Under the pieces are notes generated by a model. It ran no database searches. It saw nothing but the letters and a program-made list of their open reading frames with translations, and was not told the DNA's origin. Made by a program: the position numbers and the translations under genes. Source: Thermocrinis sp. (GTDB lineage Bacteria > Aquificota > Aquificia > Aquificales > Aquificaceae). Taken from it: a stretch of DNA of 64,000 nucleotides. Shown in pieces: positions 3,384-54,160 of the stretch. Position 1 is the stretch's first letter; the number at the start of each line of letters is the position of its first letter. The stretch covers positions 9,652 to 73,651 of the forward strand of contig JAPYWH010000002.1 of NCBI GenBank assembly GCA_028276475.1, given 5' to 3'.

Positions 3384-4466
3384 TCAAACACCTTGCAGTG
3401 AGGCGCGCAGTTTCTCCTCCATCTCGTGCTCCTCTAAGGCGGAGATGATCTCATCAAGCTTTCCTTCTAAGATGTCCTGAAGGCGATGGGAGGTGTAGTT
3501 GATGCGATGGTCTGTAACCCTGTTTTGTGGAAAGTTGTAGGTTCTGATCTTTTCGCTCCTTTCCCCAGTTCCCACCTGCTCCCTCCTCTCCTGTGCGATC
3601 TTTTCTTCCTTTTGCCTCTCGTAGTGATCCTTTAGCCTTGCGTAGAGTATTTTCATAGCCTTTAGCTTATTCTGAAATTGGGAACGCTCGTCTTGGCAGG
3701 ATACCACTATCCCCGTGGGTAAGTGGGTGATCCGGACCGCAGTCTCAGTGGTATTCACATACTGCCCACCCGCACCACTGGCACGAAAGGTTTCTATCTT
3801 TAGGTCCTCCGGGTTTATTTGCACCTCCGTCTCGTCTGCCTCAGGAAGGACAGCTACTGTGGCGGTGGAGGTGTGTATTCTTCCTCCCGCTTCCGTTTTT
3901 GGCACCCTCTGGACCCTATGAACCCCACTTTCATACTTTAACTTCGCGTAGGCGTCCTTACCCTCAATTAGGGCTATAACCTCCTTGTATCCTCCGAGCC
4001 CTGTCTTTTGGGCGCTAAGTATGGAAAACTTCCAGCCTTTTTCCTCTGCGTACTTTTGATACATGTTCAGCAAGTCGGCAGCAAAGAGGGCAGCCTCTTC
4101 GCCACCAACCCCCGCCCTGATTTCCAGTATAACATTTTTAGAATCCTTTTCATCCTTTGGAACCAACAGCCGTTTTATCTCCTTTTCTAACTCCTCCTTT
4201 TCTTTTTCTAACCTTTTGAGTTCCTCCTTTGCTAAATCTTCAAACTCCTTGTTTTCCAAAAGTTCCTTGGCAGATTCCATTTCCCTCTTTATCTTTGCAT
4301 ATTTGTTGTATGCCTCGTAGGCAGGCTCCAACTCCTTGAATTCTTTGCTTAGCTTGGAGTAAAGGTCTATGTCCTTTAGGGTCTCTGGGTCTGAGAGCTT
4401 AGCCTGAAGTTGAATGTATTTTTGGTGTAATACCCTTAGTCTTTCCTCTAAGTCCTTATGAAGCAT
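3384..4466 (-). CDS. prfA: Peptide chain release factor 1
   Basis: GGQ motif, 'ESGVHRVQRVP', 'IRTYNFPQNRVTDHRI'. Confidence 0.97.
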   Translation of the reverse strand: MLHKDLEERLRVLHQKYIQLQAKLSDPETLKDIDLYSKLSKEFKELEPAYEAYNKYAKIKREMESAKELLENKEFEDLAKEELKRLEKEKEELEKEIKRLLVPKDEKDSKNVILEIRAGVGGEEAALFAADLLNMYQKYAEEKGWKFSILSAQKTGLGGYKEVIALIEGKDAYAKLKYESGVHRVQRVPKTEAGGRIHTSTATVAVLPEADETEVQINPEDLKIETFRASGAGGQYVNTTETAVRITHLPTGIVVSCQDERSQFQNKLKAMKILYARLKDHYERQKEEKIAQERREQVGTGERSEKIRTYNFPQNRVTDHRINYTSHRLQDILEGKLDEIISALEEHEMEEKLRASLQGV

Positions 4467-47288: not shown

Positions 47289-48383
47289 ATGGAATTTGAT
47301 TTTTCACAACTGAGCGAACCACTGAGGAGGGCGCTTAAGGATTTAGGGTTTGAAAAGCCCACACCCATACAAAAGGAAGCAATACCCTTAGCACTCAAGG
47401 ACTACGATATTTTGGGACAGGCGGCAACGGGCACAGGCAAGACCGCAGCCTTTGGCATACCCATAATAGAAAAGGTAAAAAAGGAAGAGGGTTTAAAGGC
47501 GCTCATACTTACTCCCACCCGAGAGCTTGCCATTCAGGTAAAGGAACAACTGCAAGAGCTTGCCAAGTATAAGGGTCTGAGGGTCTCTGTCTTTTACGGT
47601 GGAACACCCGTGGCGGGCAACATTGAGTTTTTAGCAAAATACACCCACAACATAGTGGTGGGGACGCCCGGCAGGGTCAAGGACCTTATAAACCGTTCCG
47701 CTTTAGACCTTAGCAATGTCTCTTACTTTGTCCTTGACGAGGCGGACCTTATGCTTGATATGGGCTTTATTGAGGATGTGGAAGAGATCATTTCCTATAT
47801 TCCCACCCAAAGGCAGAGTTTTATGTTCTCCGCCACCATACCAAGGCAGGTGGAAGAGCTTGCGAGGAAATACCTAAGGGAAGGCTACAAGTTGGTGAGA
47901 GTAATAAACGCTGAGCTCAAGCCAAAGATAGAGGAAAGGTTAATAAAGCTGAGCTCTCCGGAGCAAAAACTTTCAGAGTTGGAAAAGCTTCTAAGGGAGC
48001 ACCTTTTGGAGAAGGTGATTATCTTTGTTAAAACTCGCAAGGATGCAAAGGAATTGGCGGAAAGGCTGAAGGCTAAGAACTTTAAAGTGGTTGCCCTACA
48101 CGGAGATATGACCCAACGGCAGAGGGAAAACGCCCTTAGGCTCTTTAAGGATGGAAAGGTAAGAATTGTGGTGGCTACCGATGTGGCGTCAAGGGGTTTG
48201 GATATAAAGGGTGTAGGCGTGGTGATCAACTACCATATACCCGAAGACCCAGAGGTCTATATCCACCGCATAGGTAGAACTGGAAGGATTGGAAACTACG
48301 GGAAAGCTTACAGCTTTGCAACGCCCGAAGACAGCCGGGCACTGTGGAGGATAAAAAAACTTAAGGAATCCCAAAAAGCTTAG
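47289..48383 (+). CDS. DEAD-box RNA helicase (minimal core)
   Basis: Q motif, 'ATGTGKT', 'PTRELA', 'DEAD', 'SAT', 'HRIGRTGR'. Confidence 0.95.
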   Translation: MEFDFSQLSEPLRRALKDLGFEKPTPIQKEAIPLALKDYDILGQAATGTGKTAAFGIPIIEKVKKEEGLKALILTPTRELAIQVKEQLQELAKYKGLRVSVFYGGTPVAGNIEFLAKYTHNIVVGTPGRVKDLINRSALDLSNVSYFVLDEADLMLDMGFIEDVEEIISYIPTQRQSFMFSATIPRQVEELARKYLREGYKLVRVINAELKPKIEERLIKLSSPEQKLSELEKLLREHLLEKVIIFVKTRKDAKELAERLKAKNFKVVALHGDMTQRQRENALRLFKDGKVRIVVATDVASRGLDIKGVGVVINYHIPEDPEVYIHRIGRTGRIGNYGKAYSFATPEDSRALWRIKKLKESQKA

Positions 48384-48711: not shown

Positions 48712-49047
48712 ATGCACCCCGCCCTTGAGCTCTTTTTGAGCATAGCAAAGGAATACACTGACCTTACATTTGGAAGGAGTAAGGACGAGCTCATAAGCAG
48801 GTCCATAAAAGCCCTGAGGGCTCTGAGGGAGGAGGATTTAGAGAAGGTAAAGGAAAACAAAGAACTTAGCTCGGGCGTTGAGTTTTTTTTGGAGAGGTTC
48901 GCAAGCTTTGTCAAAGAGCATCCGGAGGATGTGGAAACCCTTATAAAGCTGTTAAGTTTATTCATAAAGTCGCCCGTCCCATGTAAAATAAGGCTAATAA
49001 ACTTTTCGGAGGTGCTCGTTGAAGGTCGGAGAGCTTCTCAAGAGTGA
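48712..49047 (+). CDS. Hypothetical protein
   Basis: 111-aa ORF in operon context with typical codon usage. Confidence 0.6.
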
Positions 49048-49912
49048 GTTCAGCGTATCCTTTGAGTTTTTCCCTCCCAAGTCTCCCGAGGGAGAGAAAG
49101 AGCTCTTTGAAACCATAAAGGAGCTTGAAGCACTCAAGCCCACCTTTGTATCTGTTACCTACGGGGCGGGTGGGAGCACTCGGGACAGAACAAGAAGTAT
49201 AGCTTATAGAATACACACAGAAACAAAGCTTACTGTTATGGCACATTTGACTTGCATAGCCCACTCAAAGGAGGAACTTTTAGAGATCCTTCAAGACTAC
49301 AAAAGTATAGGCATTGAGAACATATTAGCCCTCAGGGGTGATATGCCAAAGGGAGATTTTCAGGCTCCAAAAGGTGCTTGCAAGTATGCGGTGGAATTGG
49401 TAAGGTTTATAAGGGAAAATTTTGACAACTTTTTTTCTGTAGGTGTTGCCAGCTATCCAGAAAAGCATCCCGAGTCTCCCAACATGGAGTGGGAGATAAG
49501 GTTTTTCAAAGAAAAGGTCTTGGCGGGTGCTGACTTTTCCATAACTCAGATGTTCTTTGATAACTCATACTATTACAGGTTTGTGGAAAGGTGCCATAAG
49601 GAAGGTATAAACGTCCCCATAATACCGGGCATTATGCCCATAACCAATTTTTACCAGATCAAAAAGTTTGCCAGCATGTGCGGGGCAACCATACCACAGG
49701 GTCTGGTGGATACCTTGGAGCCCCATGCGGAGGACCCGGAGGAAACCACAAAAAGGGGCGTAGAGTTTGCTATAAGGCAGTGCGAAGACCTAATAGCCAA
49801 TGGAGTCCCCGGACTTCACTTTTACACCCTCAACAAATCAAAGGCAACCCTGCTTATCTACCAAGCCATAAAGCACCTTATACCGCCTAAGGTCCTATCG
49901 AGGCTGTTTTAA
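49019..49912 (+). CDS. metF: 5,10-methylenetetrahydrofolate reductase
   Basis: 'SFEFFPPK', 'SVTYGAGG', 'LRGD', 'ITQMFF', 'HFYTLN'; stop codon lies inside the TIR element. Confidence 0.96.
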
Positions 49913-50148
49913 AAATCCCTTATCGGGACCGTCCCCCCCAGCGGATAAGGGAACTAACCCTTTCCCCACCCTGTCCCACGCTCCCTTGCGGGAGGAGAGG
50001 AGTATCTTCCTCTCAAGAACAGGGAAGAGGAGGGCTACCTTCAGAACCTGCTGGACAATGGTAAGGATTTTAAAATCCTTCCCGTCTTCAGGGTTCCTTC
50101 CATTGGTCCCACAACGGGCACCCAGCAAGTTCTGAAAGCTTTGCATAG
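49900..50148 (-). ncRNA. Candidate structured ncRNA inside element copy 1
   Basis: Extended -10 TGATATAAT (50154-50162), 15-bp helix, three-way junction, terminal hairpin plus U-run; covaries with copy 2. Confidence 0.5.
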
Positions 50149-50206
50149 GAAAAATTATATCACTTCTCAAAAACTTTTCCTCAGTTTGTATTTTTAGAAC
50201 AGTATC
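49900..50206 (-). mobile_element. MITE-like non-autonomous element, copy 1 (307 bp)
   Basis: Terminal inverted repeats GAGGCTGTTTTAAAAAT / GATACTGTTCTAAAAAT (14/17), 11-bp TSD, no transposase. Confidence 0.85.
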
Positions 50207-51173
50207 AAGGTCCTATCTGTCTGAGAAAGGGTGGAATCTCTTCCGTTTTTGTCCACCCGCACTCCTCCAAGATTATATCCACCGTCTCTTCTTGCTTTCC
50301 CGTCTTTTGAGAGGCATACTTCACAAACTCTGCCCTTTTGCCCTTAAAGTTCTCTATATCTTCCTCAGAGACCTCAGGCAGTCTTGCTGTTATCCTCTGC
50401 TTGACGATTTTCCAAGCGGTAGTGTTGCTATAAAGGTCAAACTTTTTGTCTTTTACTGTTATCTTGGCGGTTAGTTCCTTAAGAAAGTCCAGCCTTTTTG
50501 GGTCTATAGTCAGTATAGCCTCCGCCATGAGAGGGTCTGCGGTGTAGAAGATGCCAAAGAGCTTTCCTAACACCCTCCTGTGGGTTAGAATGATCCTATC
50601 AAGGATCAACTGAACATCCTCCTCTACCTTTTCGTATATGAGGTCATAGTAGTTTAGTGTTTCAAGCTCAAGACCTCCAACATGCCTTATGAAGTTTGCC
50701 ACGTTCCCATAGTCCAACTCCTGCTTTTCTTCCTCCACCTTTTCTTTTACCACCTGCGTGCTCCCGTAGTCAAGGACCACATCCGTATGCACGGGTGAGA
50801 TTATGTGATAAGTTTCCGATTCCCAACCTGCTTTGCGCAGAATTTGCTCCGCACCGCTTTCGTCAATGTTTAGCCTTTCCATGAGCAACCTCTTTAGTCC
50901 TTCCCTGTCCCTTCTGTATTTGTCCAATTCCTCCTCGGGAATATCCACATCCACATAAACGAACCTTTCTACGCCGTTTTCCTTTATGAATATATTTTTC
51001 CTGCCTCTTATGTGCCTTTTGATGAACGCCCACTCCTCGTCGGTCATAATAGGTTCTGGATGCCACAGTTTGGACATCTCCTCCTCAAGCTCTAAGTAAG
51101 GTACCGATTCATACCATGTGGCGTTGTTGAGCTTCATCTCCACAGATTCCCTGCTCTCTCCCGTCTTTTTCAT
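50205..51173 (-). CDS. Hypothetical protein with CsbD/YjbJ-like helical repeats; 5' part separated by a frameshift
   Basis: Repeats W..[IV]K..I..R...EE...R......L...GW at about aa 48-117 and 254-308; repeat homology continues upstream of the ATG. Confidence 0.65.
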   Translation of the reverse strand: MKKTGESRESVEMKLNNATWYESVPYLELEEEMSKLWHPEPIMTDEEWAFIKRHIRGRKNIFIKENGVERFVYVDVDIPEEELDKYRRDREGLKRLLMERLNIDESGAEQILRKAGWESETYHIISPVHTDVVLDYGSTQVVKEKVEEEKQELDYGNVANFIRHVGGLELETLNYYDLIYEKVEEDVQLILDRIILTHRRVLGKLFGIFYTADPLMAEAILTIDPKRLDFLKELTAKITVKDKKFDLYSNTTAWKIVKQRITARLPEVSEEDIENFKGKRAEFVKYASQKTGKQEETVDIILEECGWTKTEEIPPFLRQIGP

Positions 51174-51210
51174 TACATAGTCTATGAACTCTTTCCTTTT
51201 GAACTTAAAG

Positions 51211-51459
51211 CTATATTACCTGAAGTAGCCGGGCTAAGTTGAGCTTTTTTATGTTTTCAATGTGGCAAAGTTCCGCCCGGTATTCGGGTGGAAGGTTAAT
51301 GACGCAATACTCGTTCATAACGTCCATTTCCCGCTTTAGCATACTACGAAAGAAGGCGAGCTTTTCCCTCCTGCTTAGGTTTTGTTTTTCTAAAAGTTTT
51401 TCCATCATGGCTGTTCCCTCCTTTGTTAGATAAATATAATCTACTGAGGGAGGTCTCAC
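51211..51459 (-). pseudogene. Probable frameshifted 5' fragment of the 50205-51173 gene
   Basis: C-terminal 'IKKLNLARLLQV' matches repeat segment 'VKQRITARLPEV'. Confidence 0.5.
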
Positions 51460-52465: not shown

Positions 52466-52764
52466 GAGTTCTCTTTGTAGTAAGCAGTAATCCCTTCTCA
52501 AAGGACTACACCACCATTTTTAACTTGGTGAAGGAGCTTGTAAAGAGGGGAGAGGTTATCATCTTTTTCACGGGCAACGGTGCATACTACACCATAAGAC
52601 CCGAGACAGAAGAGCTTAACAAATTGGGGGCGAGGCTTTTGTATTGTGCTCACTCTGCCCACCAGAGGGGCATAAAGGAGACCCTTCCCTTCTTTGAAAG
52701 CAGTTCCACCTATAACCTTTCCAGGATCATGCTTGAATGTCAAAAGGTGTTATCTTTTAACTGA
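52462..52764 (+). CDS. DsrE/TusD-family sulfurtransferase
   Basis: 'IFFTGNGAY', 'CAHSAHQRG'. Confidence 0.8.
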   Translation: MRVLFVVSSNPFSKDYTTIFNLVKELVKRGEVIIFFTGNGAYYTIRPETEELNKLGARLLYCAHSAHQRGIKETLPFFESSSTYNLSRIMLECQKVLSFN

Positions 52765-52827
52765 TGGAAAGAAAAGATTTTCTCGGGTTCTCTATATCAG
52801 AGTTGGGTGTGGGCACCTGTATGGTGG

Positions 52828-53077
52828 TAGGGTGTTCTGAAAATACAAACCCATTCCTGACCTACCGACCAAATATATTGTTTCAGCTATTTACAACTGC
52901 TTGGCGAGTTCTGAAGGTAGCCTTCCTCTTCCCTATACTTGGAAAGGTCTTACTGAGGGACCTTTCTCCTCTGAAGCCCACATTGGTGGAAGGGGCGTGG
53001 GTAAGGGAGAGGAAACGGTTAGCCCCTTTATCCGTTGGAGGGGCGTATCCCGACGAGGGATTTTTTAGAACAGCCTC
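52828..53077 (+). mobile_element. MITE-like element, copy 2 (250 bp, diverged)
   Basis: Ends TAGGGTGTTCTGAAAATACAAAC / GAGGCTGTTCTAAAAAA; shares GTTCTGAAGGTAGCC and downstream fold with copy 1; no convincing TSD. Confidence 0.75.
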
Positions 53078-54160
53078 ATGGAAGAAACACAAAAAATACG
53101 TCTTTTGAGTAGGTTGGCAAGCTTTGAAAGAGACGGAGATGCCAACTTGGAGGATTGTATATACATGGCTTCCACTCCAAAGGGCAGAGTTCCCATACTT
53201 AAGGTTATGCAAACTACTATGTGCGATAAAAACTGTCTTTACTGTGTCTTTAGAAGGGGCAGAGATGAAACCCCTCGGATTTACATACCTCCAGACCAGT
53301 TGGCGAGGAGCTTTATGGAACTTTACAGAAGGGGTAAGGTAAAGGGGCTTTTCTTGTCCTCTGGGATCTTTGGGCATCCAGAATTTACCATGGAAAAAAT
53401 GATAGACACGGTAAAGATACTGCGAGAGAAATATCATTTTAATGGATATGTTCATTTAAAGCTAATGCCCGGCGTTTCTTTGCAAACAGTAGAGGAGGCT
53501 GTAAAAGTAGCAGACAGGGTCTCCATAAACATAGAGACCTCCAAGGAGGAGAGGCTCAAAAGGATTGCCAAAGGAAAGAGCATACTGCAGGATATTCTTC
53601 CAAAAATAGAAGCGGTGGATAAGCTCATTAGGGAATACAGGGGAAAAAGCCAGATAACCCAAATGATGGTGGGTGTGGATGGAGAAAGGGATGAGGAGAT
53701 CATCAAAGTGGTGAATTTCCTGCATAGAAAATACAGGCTCAGCAGGATCTACTTTAGCGCCTTCTTCCCGATAAAGGGAACGCCTCTTGAGGACAGGCAA
53801 GCGGAGAACCCTTTACGGGAACACAGGCTCTATCAGGCAGAATTTTTGATCAAAGATTATGGCTTTAGCGTAGAGGATTTTAGCAAAGTGCTTGTGGATG
53901 GGAACCTCCCCTTAAACATTGACCCAAAAGAGGCGTGGGCCCTTGCCAACAGGGAGCTATTCCCCGTGGAGATAAACAGAGCAGATTATCATCTTCTTAT
54001 GCGGGTGCCTGGTATAGGCAAGAAATCCGCGGAGGAAATAATCTCAAGGCGCAAAGTAAAAAGGCTCTCTTCCTTGGAAGACCTTAAGGGTATAAGAAAC
54101 CTCAAGAAAATACTCAAATACATAACGATAAATGGGCGCTACTACGGAAAGGGGCTATAA
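53078..54160 (+). CDS. Putative DNA modification/repair radical SAM protein with C-terminal HhH
   Basis: 'CDKNCLYC', 'GLFLSSG', 'GYVHLKLMPG', 'REHRLYQAEFL', 'RVPGIG'. Confidence 0.88.
   Translation: MEETQKIRLLSRLASFERDGDANLEDCIYMASTPKGRVPILKVMQTTMCDKNCLYCVFRRGRDETPRIYIPPDQLARSFMELYRRGKVKGLFLSSGIFGHPEFTMEKMIDTVKILREKYHFNGYVHLKLMPGVSLQTVEEAVKVADRVSINIETSKEERLKRIAKGKSILQDILPKIEAVDKLIREYRGKSQITQMMVGVDGERDEEIIKVVNFLHRKYRLSRIYFSAFFPIKGTPLEDRQAENPLREHRLYQAEFLIKDYGFSVEDFSKVLVDGNLPLNIDPKEAWALANRELFPVEINRADYHLLMRVPGIGKKSAEEIISRRKVKRLSSLEDLKGIRNLKKILKYITINGRYYGKGL

Follow-up and report, generated by a model that had tools for sequence, protein, structure and literature searches.

The gene for methylenetetrahydrofolate reductase (metF) in a Thermocrinis sp. 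contig runs at its 3' end into a 307-bp segment that, within the 64-kb stretch of DNA analyzed here (the window), raises the question of whether it is a mobile element and, if so, what mobilizes it. The initial annotation described it as a MITE lacking a transposase, with 17-bp terminal inverted repeats (TIRs), an exact 11-bp flanking repeat and, tentatively, a relationship to IS1182/IS5-type DDE elements. The features of this segment, hereafter copy 1, are as follows, where the left end (LE) and right end (RE) are named in the sense of a parental TnpB-like gene.

49019..49912, plus strand: metF ORF, from the ORF list; empty-site junction CCTAAGGTCCTATC followed by TGTCTGAG
49889..49899, no strand: target-site duplication AAGGTCCTATC adjoining RE, single at the empty site
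49895..50170, minus strand: 91-aa relic ORF, left over from codons ~433-522 of the TnpB-like gene
49900..50206, minus strand: MITE copy 1, 307 bp; the parental TnpB-like gene sense is the window minus strand
49900..49916, minus strand: RE terminal inverted repeat (GAGGCTGTTTTAAAAAT on the plus strand)
49916..50040, minus strand: structured-RNA module, helices B-F, omega-RNA-like (covariance model R1, 99.7 bits, E 9e-21; covariation)
50061..50081, minus strand: hairpin A of the RNA module (GAAGGATTTTAAAATCCTTAC on the minus strand), retained throughout the family by five or more distinct helix sequences
50154..50162, minus strand: TGATATAAT, extended -10-like, read from the sequence
50190..50206, minus strand: LE terminal inverted repeat (GATACTGTTCTAAAAAT on the minus strand, then ACAAAC)
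50207..50217, no strand: target-site duplication adjoining LE, exact AAGGTCCTATC, read from the sequence
50218..50222, minus strand: target motif AGACA (TGTCT on the plus strand), adjoining the 5' side of the LE duplication and conforming to the family-wide G-N-C-A

Copy 1 starts with GAGGCTGTTTTAAAAAT and finishes with ATTTTTAGAACAGTATC (reverse complement GATACTGTTCTAAAAAT), and its 17-bp TIRs match at 15 of 17 positions. With three or fewer mismatches allowed, the TIR pattern occurs four times in the window, at exactly the four ends of copy 1 and a second copy (0.87 occurrences expected; four reached in none of 100 shuffles), and the sequence and this shuffle control bear out the segment, its TIRs and its 11-bp repeat as first described. 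An empty site, which the initial annotation had suggested looking for, was found at metF: contigs from four hot-spring metatranscriptome runs join position 49888 directly to 50207, skipping 318 nt (307 plus 11, with the 11 letters fitting either side), and one DNA run has matching loose ends at this locus. Copy 1 was shown to be missing at the same metF site in related natural populations, its duplication is a true target-site duplication (TSD), and the 307 bp that follow metF are a genuine miniature transposon that moved recently. The final metF codons now extend into the MITE and read ...PPKVLSRLF before the stop codon, compared with ...PPKVLSV at the empty site.

The second copy noted in the initial annotation, inverted, with matching ends and with ACAAAC at both left ends, is also present, and comprises the following features.

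52764..53108, plus strand: 114-aa relic ORF, whose middle and end are the remnant of codons ~465-522 of the TnpB-like gene
52811..52815, plus strand: GGGCA target motif, 12 nt upstream of the copy 2 LE, the same motif as at copy 1
52828..53077, plus strand: MITE copy 2, 250 bp, opposite in orientation to copy 1, with its sense on the plus strand
52828..52844, plus strand: degenerate LE inverted repeat (TAGGGTGTTCTGAAAAT)
52915..53060, plus strand: structured-RNA module, helices B-F (R1, 132.2 bits, E 5e-28)
53061..53077, plus strand: RE inverted repeat (reverse complement GAGGCTGTTCTAAAAAA)

Copy 2 shares ~77% identity with copy 1 over their common part and carries internal deletions; it lacks hairpin A and has three broken pairs in helix B. 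It is a separate deletion derivative; compared with the full-length element of Thermocrinis Bin P10, it has 82% identity to the 3' end. No recognizable TSD was found in its flanks, and a search for a clean empty site found none. Both copies are present and identical in the metagenome contig WYEB01001644.1 (L080), while blastn and the covariance model detected no further copy, and no full-length TnpB-like element was found, in the 64-kb window. Both are short (307 and 250 bp) and hold relic ORFs only, with no complete gene. The initial annotation regarded these two ORFs as spurious and mutually similar; they are not random, being relics of the last 60-90 codons of the TnpB-like gene. The 91-aa relic has 43% identity over 93 aa to the TnpB-like protein P0001 (E 2.6e-11, tblastn) and the 114-aa relic 62% identity over 58 aa to the TnpB-like protein (E 5e-16, tblastn), and both overlap the conserved structured RNA described below.

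A longer partner with the same ends was found as well. It is an element of 1638-1642 bp (~1.64 kb) that recurs dozens of times across Thermocrinis genomes and metagenomes from hot springs, and its sole ORF encodes a TnpB-related protein of 522 aa. The family comprises 52 genome loci, mainly in Thermocrinis MAGs, and at least 120 metagenome loci; some 20 Thermocrinis MAG copies, each 302-308 bp long, have 89-95% identity to copy 1, and a full-length copy is present in the complete T. ruber genome among ordinary housekeeping genes. The MITE retains ~90 nt of the left end of the parent and its last ~215 nt. In full-length copies, a sigma-70 promoter (11/12) lies in the LE, and the stop codon of the parental ORF falls within the RE terminal inverted repeat. 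These family copies and the relic-only ORFs bear out a multi-copy MITE without a transposase of its own. We therefore regard it as very probable that the 307-bp segment is a MITE of a TnpB-only Thermocrinis (Aquificota) element, i.e., a non-autonomous internal-deletion derivative of the TIR-bounded ~1.64-kb insertion sequence.

Searches for other genes within these ends were negative. Among the loci listed, the only longer elements (1.75-9 kb) with the same TIRs were an 1808-bp variant and a head-to-head pair. Clustering of ORFs of at least 180 aa from the ~190 loci listed (~1 Mb) revealed no multi-copy family besides the TnpB homologue. A DDE transposase within the same ends was found neither among the ~190 loci listed nor in the viral contigs inspected by hand, and no Y1 TnpA or serine TnpA was found in any Thermocrinis copy examined. 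A TIR scan of viral contigs gave chiefly chance matches, but two contigs, L177 and L190, share 26 nt with the LE end; L177, the one inspected, is phage-like. Four Methanococcoides loci proved unrelated, as the common sequence was limited to the 20-mer used for the scan.

The 522-aa protein matches TIGR01766 with 55.5 bits against a cut-off of 32 and is assigned PF27229 (SSO2105_N), while the Pfam search alone gave weak matches to DUF2192 and to a fragment of Cas12f1-like_TNB that spans only positions 3-28 of the 60 in the profile. A PDB sequence search with this protein gave no significant match, and a literature search on SSO2105 and on prokaryotic TnpB MITEs with TIRs found nothing specific. 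The AF2 model (pLDDT 81.8) matches Cas12f, Cas12k, the TnpBs of ISDra2 and ISFba1 and Fanzor2 over 420-500 columns, with E-values of the Foldseek top matches from 1e-8 to 2e-4. A RuvC catalytic triad is present, of which D225 is invariant, E288 nearly so and D357 (in SVDKD) found in the Thermocrinis clade; the RuvC-III position is Asp in this clade and its nearer relatives and His in seven of the 14 aligned members, all distant. The C4 zinc finger is absent, the corresponding stretch (...VNPAYTSVIGMLKYAPQLSVDKD...) having no Cys motif. Over codons 1-440, pN/pS is 0.15 (dN/dS ~0.15), and the gene is under purifying selection as judged from these codons. By its sequence and model, the only gene product of the element is a zinc-finger-less homologue of the TnpB family of RNA-guided nucleases. 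One relative, 47% identical, follows a serine recombinase (MerR-HTH+Resolvase) gene in the arrangement classical for IS607.

The 3' part of the MITE is predicted by RNAalifold to form a multi-helix fold that overlaps the end of the TnpB-like ORF. This multi-branch fold is ~190 nt long, and a 17-pair long-range helix encloses two hairpins. Across 94 sequences, 27 of the 47 pairs carry compensatory changes, altered on both sides, and such changes occurred in 246 cells compared with 65 in shuffles, none of 500 of which equalled that number; on the MAFFT alignment, 99.1% of cells are paired, compared with 51-65% when the partners are slid. Hairpin variants across the family likewise preserve pairing. 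Synonymous divergence is 0.18 in codons 471-522, about half the 0.40 found upstream. Part of the DNA conservation of the RNA core is due to coding, because the core also encodes a protein motif, W.VLK.A.L.P...RD.S.LK, that is kept in distant relatives. In four metatranscriptomes, depth over the RNA part is far above that of the flanks, a crude measure from unstranded contigs and a multi-copy sequence. In copy 1, TGATATAAT could promote transcription through the RNA module, past RE and into metF in antisense, although a strict two-hexamer scan found no promoter at this position. The RNA core holds a third TIR-like motif, GTTCTGAA; pairing of the core with the TIR-derived 3' end was ruled out, as its variants are not compensated. 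Rfam at the gathering threshold gave no match over the element. The 3' module occupies the position of a TnpB omega/reRNA, and we consider it likely to be an omega-RNA-type RNA.

Other copies with TSDs, whose absence along with that of an empty site would have counted against the initial annotation, are common in the family. Among the 69 independent complete copies, 28 have TSDs of 8-13 bp (mode 10; chance rate, 1 in 1977) and 41 have none; at two TSD-less insertions whose empty site is known, the target has lost 136 and 67 bp. Besides metF, precise empty sites were found for seven other insertions, five full-length and two MITE, and by these empty sites the full-length copies moved recently. 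The duplications begin directly after an asymmetric G-N-C-A(A), ~10 bp from LE and on the left-end side only. In 76 of 104 independent LE flanks, CA ends 9-12 nt upstream (~20 expected), while the 90 strict RE flanks contain no mirror motif; a weak mirror TTG signal on the RE side vanished once reversed left ends were excluded. In a hand tally of the TSD-verified insertions, CA stands just before the TSD in 22 of 28 and TG just after it in three of 28. The T. ruber copy follows this pattern, with GGCA and then an 11-bp TSD with one mismatch. The G-N-C-A motif resembles a TAM. The idea that TSD-less copies carry hypermutated left-side duplicates, by which they escape self-targeting, was dropped because the distribution of matches is near random apart from four copies.

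To explain these features together, we lean towards a MITE of a TnpB-only element that carries an omega-RNA-like module and is moved by a mobilizing enzyme supplied in trans. TIR recognition and staggered joining to the target would most likely be carried out by that enzyme, which may be a transposase that works on the 17-bp TIRs; the same has been proposed for other solo TnpBs whose ends are inverted. The 3' module RNA would be transcribed towards and across RE, so that its 3' tail, the guide, would consist of flanking DNA, namely the duplicated 10-11 nt and the sequence after them. In the empty site, the guide-matching sequence would lie directly 3' of G-N-C-A, and G-N-C-A would therefore be the TAM. 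A TnpB-like RNP from full-length copies could then, in trans, recognize and cut empty alleles, which would be the retention or homing role known for TnpB. At occupied sites, the match beside the TAM would shrink to ~10 nt, and this would protect them. We infer RNA-guided cleavage by the TnpB-like protein and the TAM role of G-N-C-A from this geometry. The weaker step is the transposase: in the ~1 Mb of related loci listed, none with these TIRs was found, the TnpB homologue aside, and the lack of such a gene, of longer variants beyond those described above and of another multi-copy ORF weakens the proposal that an unlinked transposase mobilizes the element, which we hold to be possible yet somewhat doubtful. 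Furthermore, a one-sided, oriented motif and an 8-13-bp spread of TSD lengths would not be expected of a symmetric-TIR DDE transpososome.

This asymmetry is among the reasons to consider that transposition, or at minimum the choice of target, is the work of the TnpB-family protein itself, alone or together with its RNA. Binding G-N-C-A as a TAM, it would join the element ~10 bp downstream of the motif, always in one orientation, and so create the duplication, and the protein from full-length copies would mobilize the MITEs. A one-sided motif with a variable stagger is natural for an asymmetric, TAM-reading factor and hard to obtain with a symmetric transpososome. The TnpB-like ORF is the sole ORF between the TIRs in every full-length copy, that of T. 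ruber included, and the only multi-copy family in the ~1 Mb of loci listed; the gene is under purifying selection, the full-length copies moved recently by their empty sites, and its RuvC/RNase-H fold is shared with DDE transposases. Known TnpB and Cas12 enzymes cleave 15-24 nt from the TAM, whereas this role requires cuts at 0 and ~10 nt from it, and TIR binding and strand transfer by the protein would be hypothetical activities. In addition, the 47%-identity relative belongs to an IS607-type unit behind a serine recombinase, IS608, ISDra2 and IS607 can transpose without TnpB, and no case of transposition mediated by TnpB has been demonstrated (PMC3627910). On balance, we consider a transposase or target-selector role rather unlikely. 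Its more specific form, that a TnpB lacking the zinc finger and TNB directs or performs, with the 3' RNA, oriented insertion ~10 bp past G-N-C-A with an 8-13-bp duplication, appears less likely still; if true, the element would be a minimal single-gene, TAM-directed transposon and the MITEs its RNA-carrying passengers.

Three further explanations fare worse. The conserved pairing could work at the level of DNA, as ssDNA hairpins or subterminal binding sites like the ends of IS200/IS605; covariation reveals single-strand pairing, for which RNA and ssDNA are indistinguishable, and the GTTCTGAA motif within the core is TIR-like. A multi-branch fold of ~190 nt is nevertheless what omega/reRNAs typically show, in contrast to the short hairpins at IS605 termini, the structure is confined to the 3' end, where it overlaps the ORF as in TnpB loci, and it is abundant in metatranscriptomes, which makes a DNA-level role quite improbable. 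The family suggested in the initial annotation, a MITE of an IS1182/IS5-type DDE insertion sequence with no relation to TnpB, would account for the TIRs and the long TSD, but it is unsupported because the full-length partner encodes only a TnpB-related protein. Inside the MITE lies sequence homologous to the 3' end of the TnpB-like gene, that gene alone is encoded by the only longer elements that share these ends among the loci listed, and no DDE ORF was found in those loci; we consider such an origin very improbable. Finally, strong folding (z -4.4 and -5.9) would suit a resident, repeated regulatory or ncRNA locus beside which the 11-mer repeat is coincidental. This explanation is refuted by the precise empty site with its single 11-mer, dozens of copies lie at unrelated sites with differing TSDs, and we assign it almost no probability.

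The Thermocrinis element combines traits of several known systems. With IS200/IS605 (including the TnpB-only IS1341 group), IS607 and their non-autonomous derivatives, the PATEs, it has in common a TnpB-family gene (TIGR01766; Cas12f/TnpB fold), a structured RNA that overlaps the 3' end of the gene and reaches the right end, a short one-sided target motif on the left-end side, and abundant TnpB-only copies with short, end-keeping derivatives. IS200/IS605 and IS607 elements have no TIRs and no target duplication, and their left end abuts the target motif (PMC3627910, PMC13565253, PMC6188088), whereas the Thermocrinis element has 17-bp TIRs and 8-13-bp TSDs, and its motif lies 9-12 nt from the left end with the duplicated ~10 nt between. 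As described in the main text of Altae-Tran et al. (2023, PMC10691335), TnpBs are especially common in Aquificae, and those of clade RIIIr-4 likewise lack a C4 zinc finger between RuvC-II and RuvC-III and have His for the RuvC-III Asp, as do distant members of the family here, while the Thermocrinis clade retains Asp (D357). That main text gives no TIR/TSD ends for RIIIr-4. It also describes TnpB branches associated with DDE transposases, and solo TnpBs that share their inverted ends, the latter presumed to be mobilized in trans, in which the TnpB homologue lies within inverted terminal repeats as it does here; the Fanzor-only transposons with TIRs and TSDs that occur in eukaryotes and eukaryotic viruses (PMC10711439) similarly place a TnpB homologue in a TIR-bounded element. 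In these systems, as far as described in those sources, and in the Thermocrinis element, the RNA scaffold would run through the TIR, so that the TSD would start the flank-derived part. The Thermocrinis element differs from DDE-associated TnpBs and Fanzor transposons, as so described, in that no DDE partner, linked or unlinked, was found in the loci listed, its motif is one-sided and orientation-locked with a TSD of 8-13 bp, and its host is a bacterium with a 1.5-Mb genome. Like classical bacterial MITEs, its derivatives are small, TIR-bounded, TSD-making, multi-copy, strain-polymorphic and derived by internal deletion; unlike those DDE-derived elements, they have a parent that encodes no recognized transposase, and they keep a selected, functional-looking RNA module besides the ends. 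The element is an unusual TnpB element with inverted-repeat ends, target duplications and a guide-RNA-like 3' module.

For annotation, the MITEs explain two 'hypothetical protein' ORFs and the altered C-terminus of metF in the window. More broadly, the means by which TnpB-only elements spread have long been debated: a protein other than TnpB is the transposase in those IS605/IS607 systems that have been studied, and descriptions of TnpB-only elements mention neither TIRs nor TSDs but state that both are lacking (PMC3627910, PMC13565253, PMC6188088). The present family is a bacterial TnpB-only family with hallmarks of the cut-and-paste type, i.e., TIRs, TSDs, precise empty sites and many recent insertions, whose one-sided target motif sits exactly where a TAM is expected and whose MITEs keep the RNA module. 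If the TnpB relative is not involved, the family could reveal the missing transposase and how TAM, TSD and guide are made compatible. Being compact, thermophilic and represented in a cultured species, Thermocrinis ruber, the family could be used to test whether a TnpB relative has a part in target choice or transposition.

The 307-bp segment at metF and its inverted relative in the window are very probably miniature inverted-repeat elements (MITEs) derived from a TnpB-only transposable element of Thermocrinis. The features concerned are:

49889-49899 and 50207-50217: the 11-mer AAGGTCCTATC, exact at both places
49900-50206: copy 1, 307 bp, with 17-bp inverted repeats at its ends (15/17 positions matching)
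52828-53077: copy 2, inverted relative to copy 1

Read from the window sequence, the order at copy 1 is CCGCCT AAGGTCCTATC / GAGGCTGTTTTAAAAATCCC ... GTTTGTATTTTTAGAACAGTATC / AAGGTCCTATC TGTCTGAG. With at most three mismatches, the inverted repeat occurs four times in the 64 kb, precisely at the ends of both copies, against a chance expectation of 0.87, and four was reached by no shuffle. The exact 11-mer, the 15/17 repeats and the terminal inverted repeats (TIRs) at four ends bear out what the initial annotation had described, namely TIRs, an 11-bp duplication and an inverted second copy. The copies are about 77% identical across their shared part. Copy 2 is internally deleted and lacks a duplication at its flanks. 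Neither a third copy (blastn and covariance model, 64 kb) nor a full-length TnpB-like element is present in the window.

Mobility was assessed by comparing this stretch with contigs from public hot-spring runs. Position 49888 is joined straight to 50207 in contigs of four metatranscriptome runs, a junction that omits 318 nt (307 + 11), with 11 letters that fit either side, and that is the empty site holding a single AAGGTCCTATC. Matching loose ends come from one DNA run, with TGTCTGAG following 49899 and TTATACCGCCT preceding 50207. MetF is predicted to end in ...PPKVLSV* at the empty site vs ...PPKVLSRLF* in the window. With this empty site, the TIRs, the target-site duplication (TSD) and a multi-copy family, the segment was correctly labeled a MITE. 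The syntenic contig of Thermocrinis sp. Bin P10 (L049; 95% identical) has at the metF position merely a 21-bp remnant, GAGGCTGTTCTAAAA+CAGTAT (~3812-3832 on the reverse strand, corresponding to window 49900), which is a fusion of both ends of the same insertion and has the unusual CAGTAT end of copy 1. Synteny breaks downstream of the remnant and the DNA past it resembles no part of the window; thus, the MITE marks a synteny break. Between the inverted copies (50205-51459) lie two minus-strand ORFs of 322 and 82 aa, which the syntenic Bin P10 contig lacks and whose 3' parts have in common a 55-nt stretch with 71% identity (50295-50349 vs 51156-51210).

At other loci, the same two ends are 1638-1642 bp apart and enclose one 522-aa ORF, which runs from the left end (LE; the "right" end of the initial annotation, GA..CTGTTCTAAAAATACAAAC) to the right end (RE; its "left" end). 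The stop codon falls within the RE repeat, and LE holds a predicted 11/12 sigma-70 promoter. The 522-aa protein scores 55.5 bits against NCBIfam TIGR01766 "TnpB-related" (cut-off 32), is assigned to Pfam PF27229 (SSO2105_N) by precomputed annotation, and has >2000 close relatives in hot-spring data and 1681 related cluster representatives (E<1e-3). The top 18 PDB matches of its AlphaFold model (pLDDT 81.8) are Cas12f, Cas12k, CasLambda, the TnpBs of ISDra2 and ISFba1, and Fanzor2, over 420-500 columns. Both D225 and E288 are conserved, and at the RuvC-III position the Thermocrinis clade has Asp where distant members have His; a zinc finger is absent. As far as the account of TnpB major clade RIIIr-4 in PMC10691335 goes, that clade is without the zinc finger and has an Asp-to-His change at RuvC-III; our protein agrees with this description, although the Thermocrinis clade keeps the Asp. 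Intact copies show a pN/pS of 0.15, indicative of purifying selection. Because longer elements with the same ends encode this protein, the earlier IS1182/IS5-type assignment was wrong, and an IS1182/IS5 MITE identity is rejected. The two ORFs at the MITEs that had been called spurious are relics of the TnpB-like gene, one from codons ~433-522 and the other from codons ~465-522.

A 20-mer from the conserved core matched 52 loci among species-representative genomes, nearly all in Thermocrinis MAGs (~18 in one MAG), with others in Hydrogenobacter and in one MAG each of Thermodesulfobacteriaceae and Caldipriscus. Some 20 copies have a length of 302-308 bp and are 89-95% identical to copy 1. The copies in MAGs of other genera or phyla, all from hot springs, are:

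L011, L024 and L047: Thermodesulfobacteriaceae
L020: Caldipriscus
L022: Hydrogenobacter sp. RSW1

They are due either to horizontal spread or to Thermocrinis contigs that contaminated these MAGs in binning. Four archaeal loci of Methanococcoides (L001, L004, L008, L036) were rejected as members, as they have the exact 20-nt search word in common and nothing else. Two IMG/VR viral contigs, L177 (3034-3059) and L190 (~2611-2636), each have a 26-nt match to the element LE; L177, the one of this pair that was examined, has a terminase gene and lacks a matching right end.

Perfect or near-perfect duplications of 8-13 bp (mode 10) flank 28 of 69 independent complete copies, vs a chance rate of 1 in 1977, and one of 11 bp with one mismatch flanks the copy in the complete T. 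ruber genome. Five full-length and two further MITE insertions can be matched to a precise empty site elsewhere among the loci. On the LE side, the duplication starts directly after CA, mostly within T-G-N-C-A: by hand tally of printed flanks, CA stands just before it in 22/28 verified insertions, while TG follows it in just 3/28. Likewise, CA ends 9-12 nt upstream of LE in 76 of 104 independent LE flanks (~20 expected), and no mirror motif emerges across 90 strictly defined RE flanks. Both window copies fit (AGACA+11 in copy 1, GGGCA+12 in copy 2). The 41 complete copies (~60%) without recognisable duplication mostly retain the left-side motif and are compatible with later flank alteration of about 36% per side. 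Two of these with a known empty site lack 136 and 67 bp of target; the 136 bp, from the Bin P10 helicase gene (window 47416-47551), are missing, not duplicated. This DEAD-box helicase gene (L049:5335-7874 vs window 47289-48383) is intact in the window, but in Bin P10 a full-length TnpB-like element interrupts it; there it has a further 66-bp deletion (window ~48187-48251) and looks like a decaying pseudogene. At L066:~764-1530, a MITE is nested in the LE of another copy, with its TSD ATTGTATTT directly after GTGTCA. Read on the opposite strand, the -35-like TTGACA within the element is an instance of its own target motif, TTGNCA generally being the reverse complement of -35-like hexamers.

Read in the sense of the gene, which for copy 1 is the minus strand, the MITE is made up of ~90 nt of LE and the final ~215 nt, and the latter form a conserved multi-helix structure. 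Hairpin A has at least five unrelated helix sequences across the family. Hairpin C occurs as GGAAAGGTC/GACCTTTCT, as GGACGAAT/ATTTGTCC, where the 5' arm has conservative replacements and synonymous changes in the 3' arm restore the pairing, and in the shorter MITE form GAGAGGAG/CTCCTCTC. Hairpins C and D sit inside a 17-pair long-range helix, which is followed by two more hairpins. MAFFT aligned 45 full-length-type sequences without gaps, and in this alignment 99.1% of cells pair, vs 51-65% with partners slid. Among 94 distinct sequences, in an alignment fitted to the covariance model and hence biased towards structure, 27/47 pairs have changes on both sides, and two-sided changes amount to 246 cells vs 65 in shuffles (0/500 as high) and 22-61 in slid controls. 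In the codons overlapping the module, synonymous divergence is 0.18, compared with 0.40 upstream. Since the region also codes for a protein motif kept in 30%-identical relatives, it is dual-coding, like the 3' end of tnpB genes. As a crude indication, metatranscriptome depth over the module in four runs exceeds that of the flanks beyond the DNA copy-number excess. By position, size and architecture, the module is probably a TnpB omega/reRNA-type guide RNA.

TnpB is established as cutting empty sites, thereby retaining or re-homing its element. We propose that the Thermocrinis element works like TnpB/OMEGA elements, with MITEs similar to PATEs, the non-autonomous derivatives of TnpB elements. 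The RNA would be read out through RE, so that its 3' tail would be the flank, i.e., the duplication and downstream DNA. In the empty allele this flank-derived sequence would sit immediately 3' of G-N-C-A, which may serve as target-adjacent motif (TAM) in the TnpB TAM-target arrangement, whereas the occupied site would leave just ~10 nt of match beside the motif.

Among the genes seen, none accounts for TIR-bounded insertion with duplication. IS200/IS605/IS607 elements have neither TIRs nor TSD, and their LE adjoins the target (PMC3627910; PMC13565253; PMC6188088); in contrast, the Thermocrinis element has both, its LE is set off from the motif, and it therefore fails their defining features. 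Our preferred, more conservative reading, held tentatively at somewhat below even chances, is that a so far unfound transposase acts on it in trans, as proposed for Fanzor-only elements (PMC10711439) and for solo TnpBs whose inverted ends recur in DDE-linked relatives (PMC10691335). Target choice or catalysis of insertion by the TnpB relative itself seems less likely: all that is known of TnpB in IS605/IS607 speaks against TnpB as a transposase, and a 47%-identical relative (L174:5192-7380) lies directly after a MerR-HTH+Resolvase gene (IS607-type TnpA, a serine recombinase), with a 4-nt overlap, even though the target motif is one-sided and orientation-locked, ~1 Mb of related loci holds no other candidate transposase and the neighbours of the T. 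ruber copy are housekeeping genes. The same L174 contig has a canonical OrfB_IS605 TnpB 1.9 kb upstream.

The variant found here is thus a TnpB-only element with TIRs, TSDs and a one-sided TAM-like motif, accompanied by MITEs bearing the putative RNA module, and the family may make the movement of TnpB-only elements directly testable in a cultured thermophile.
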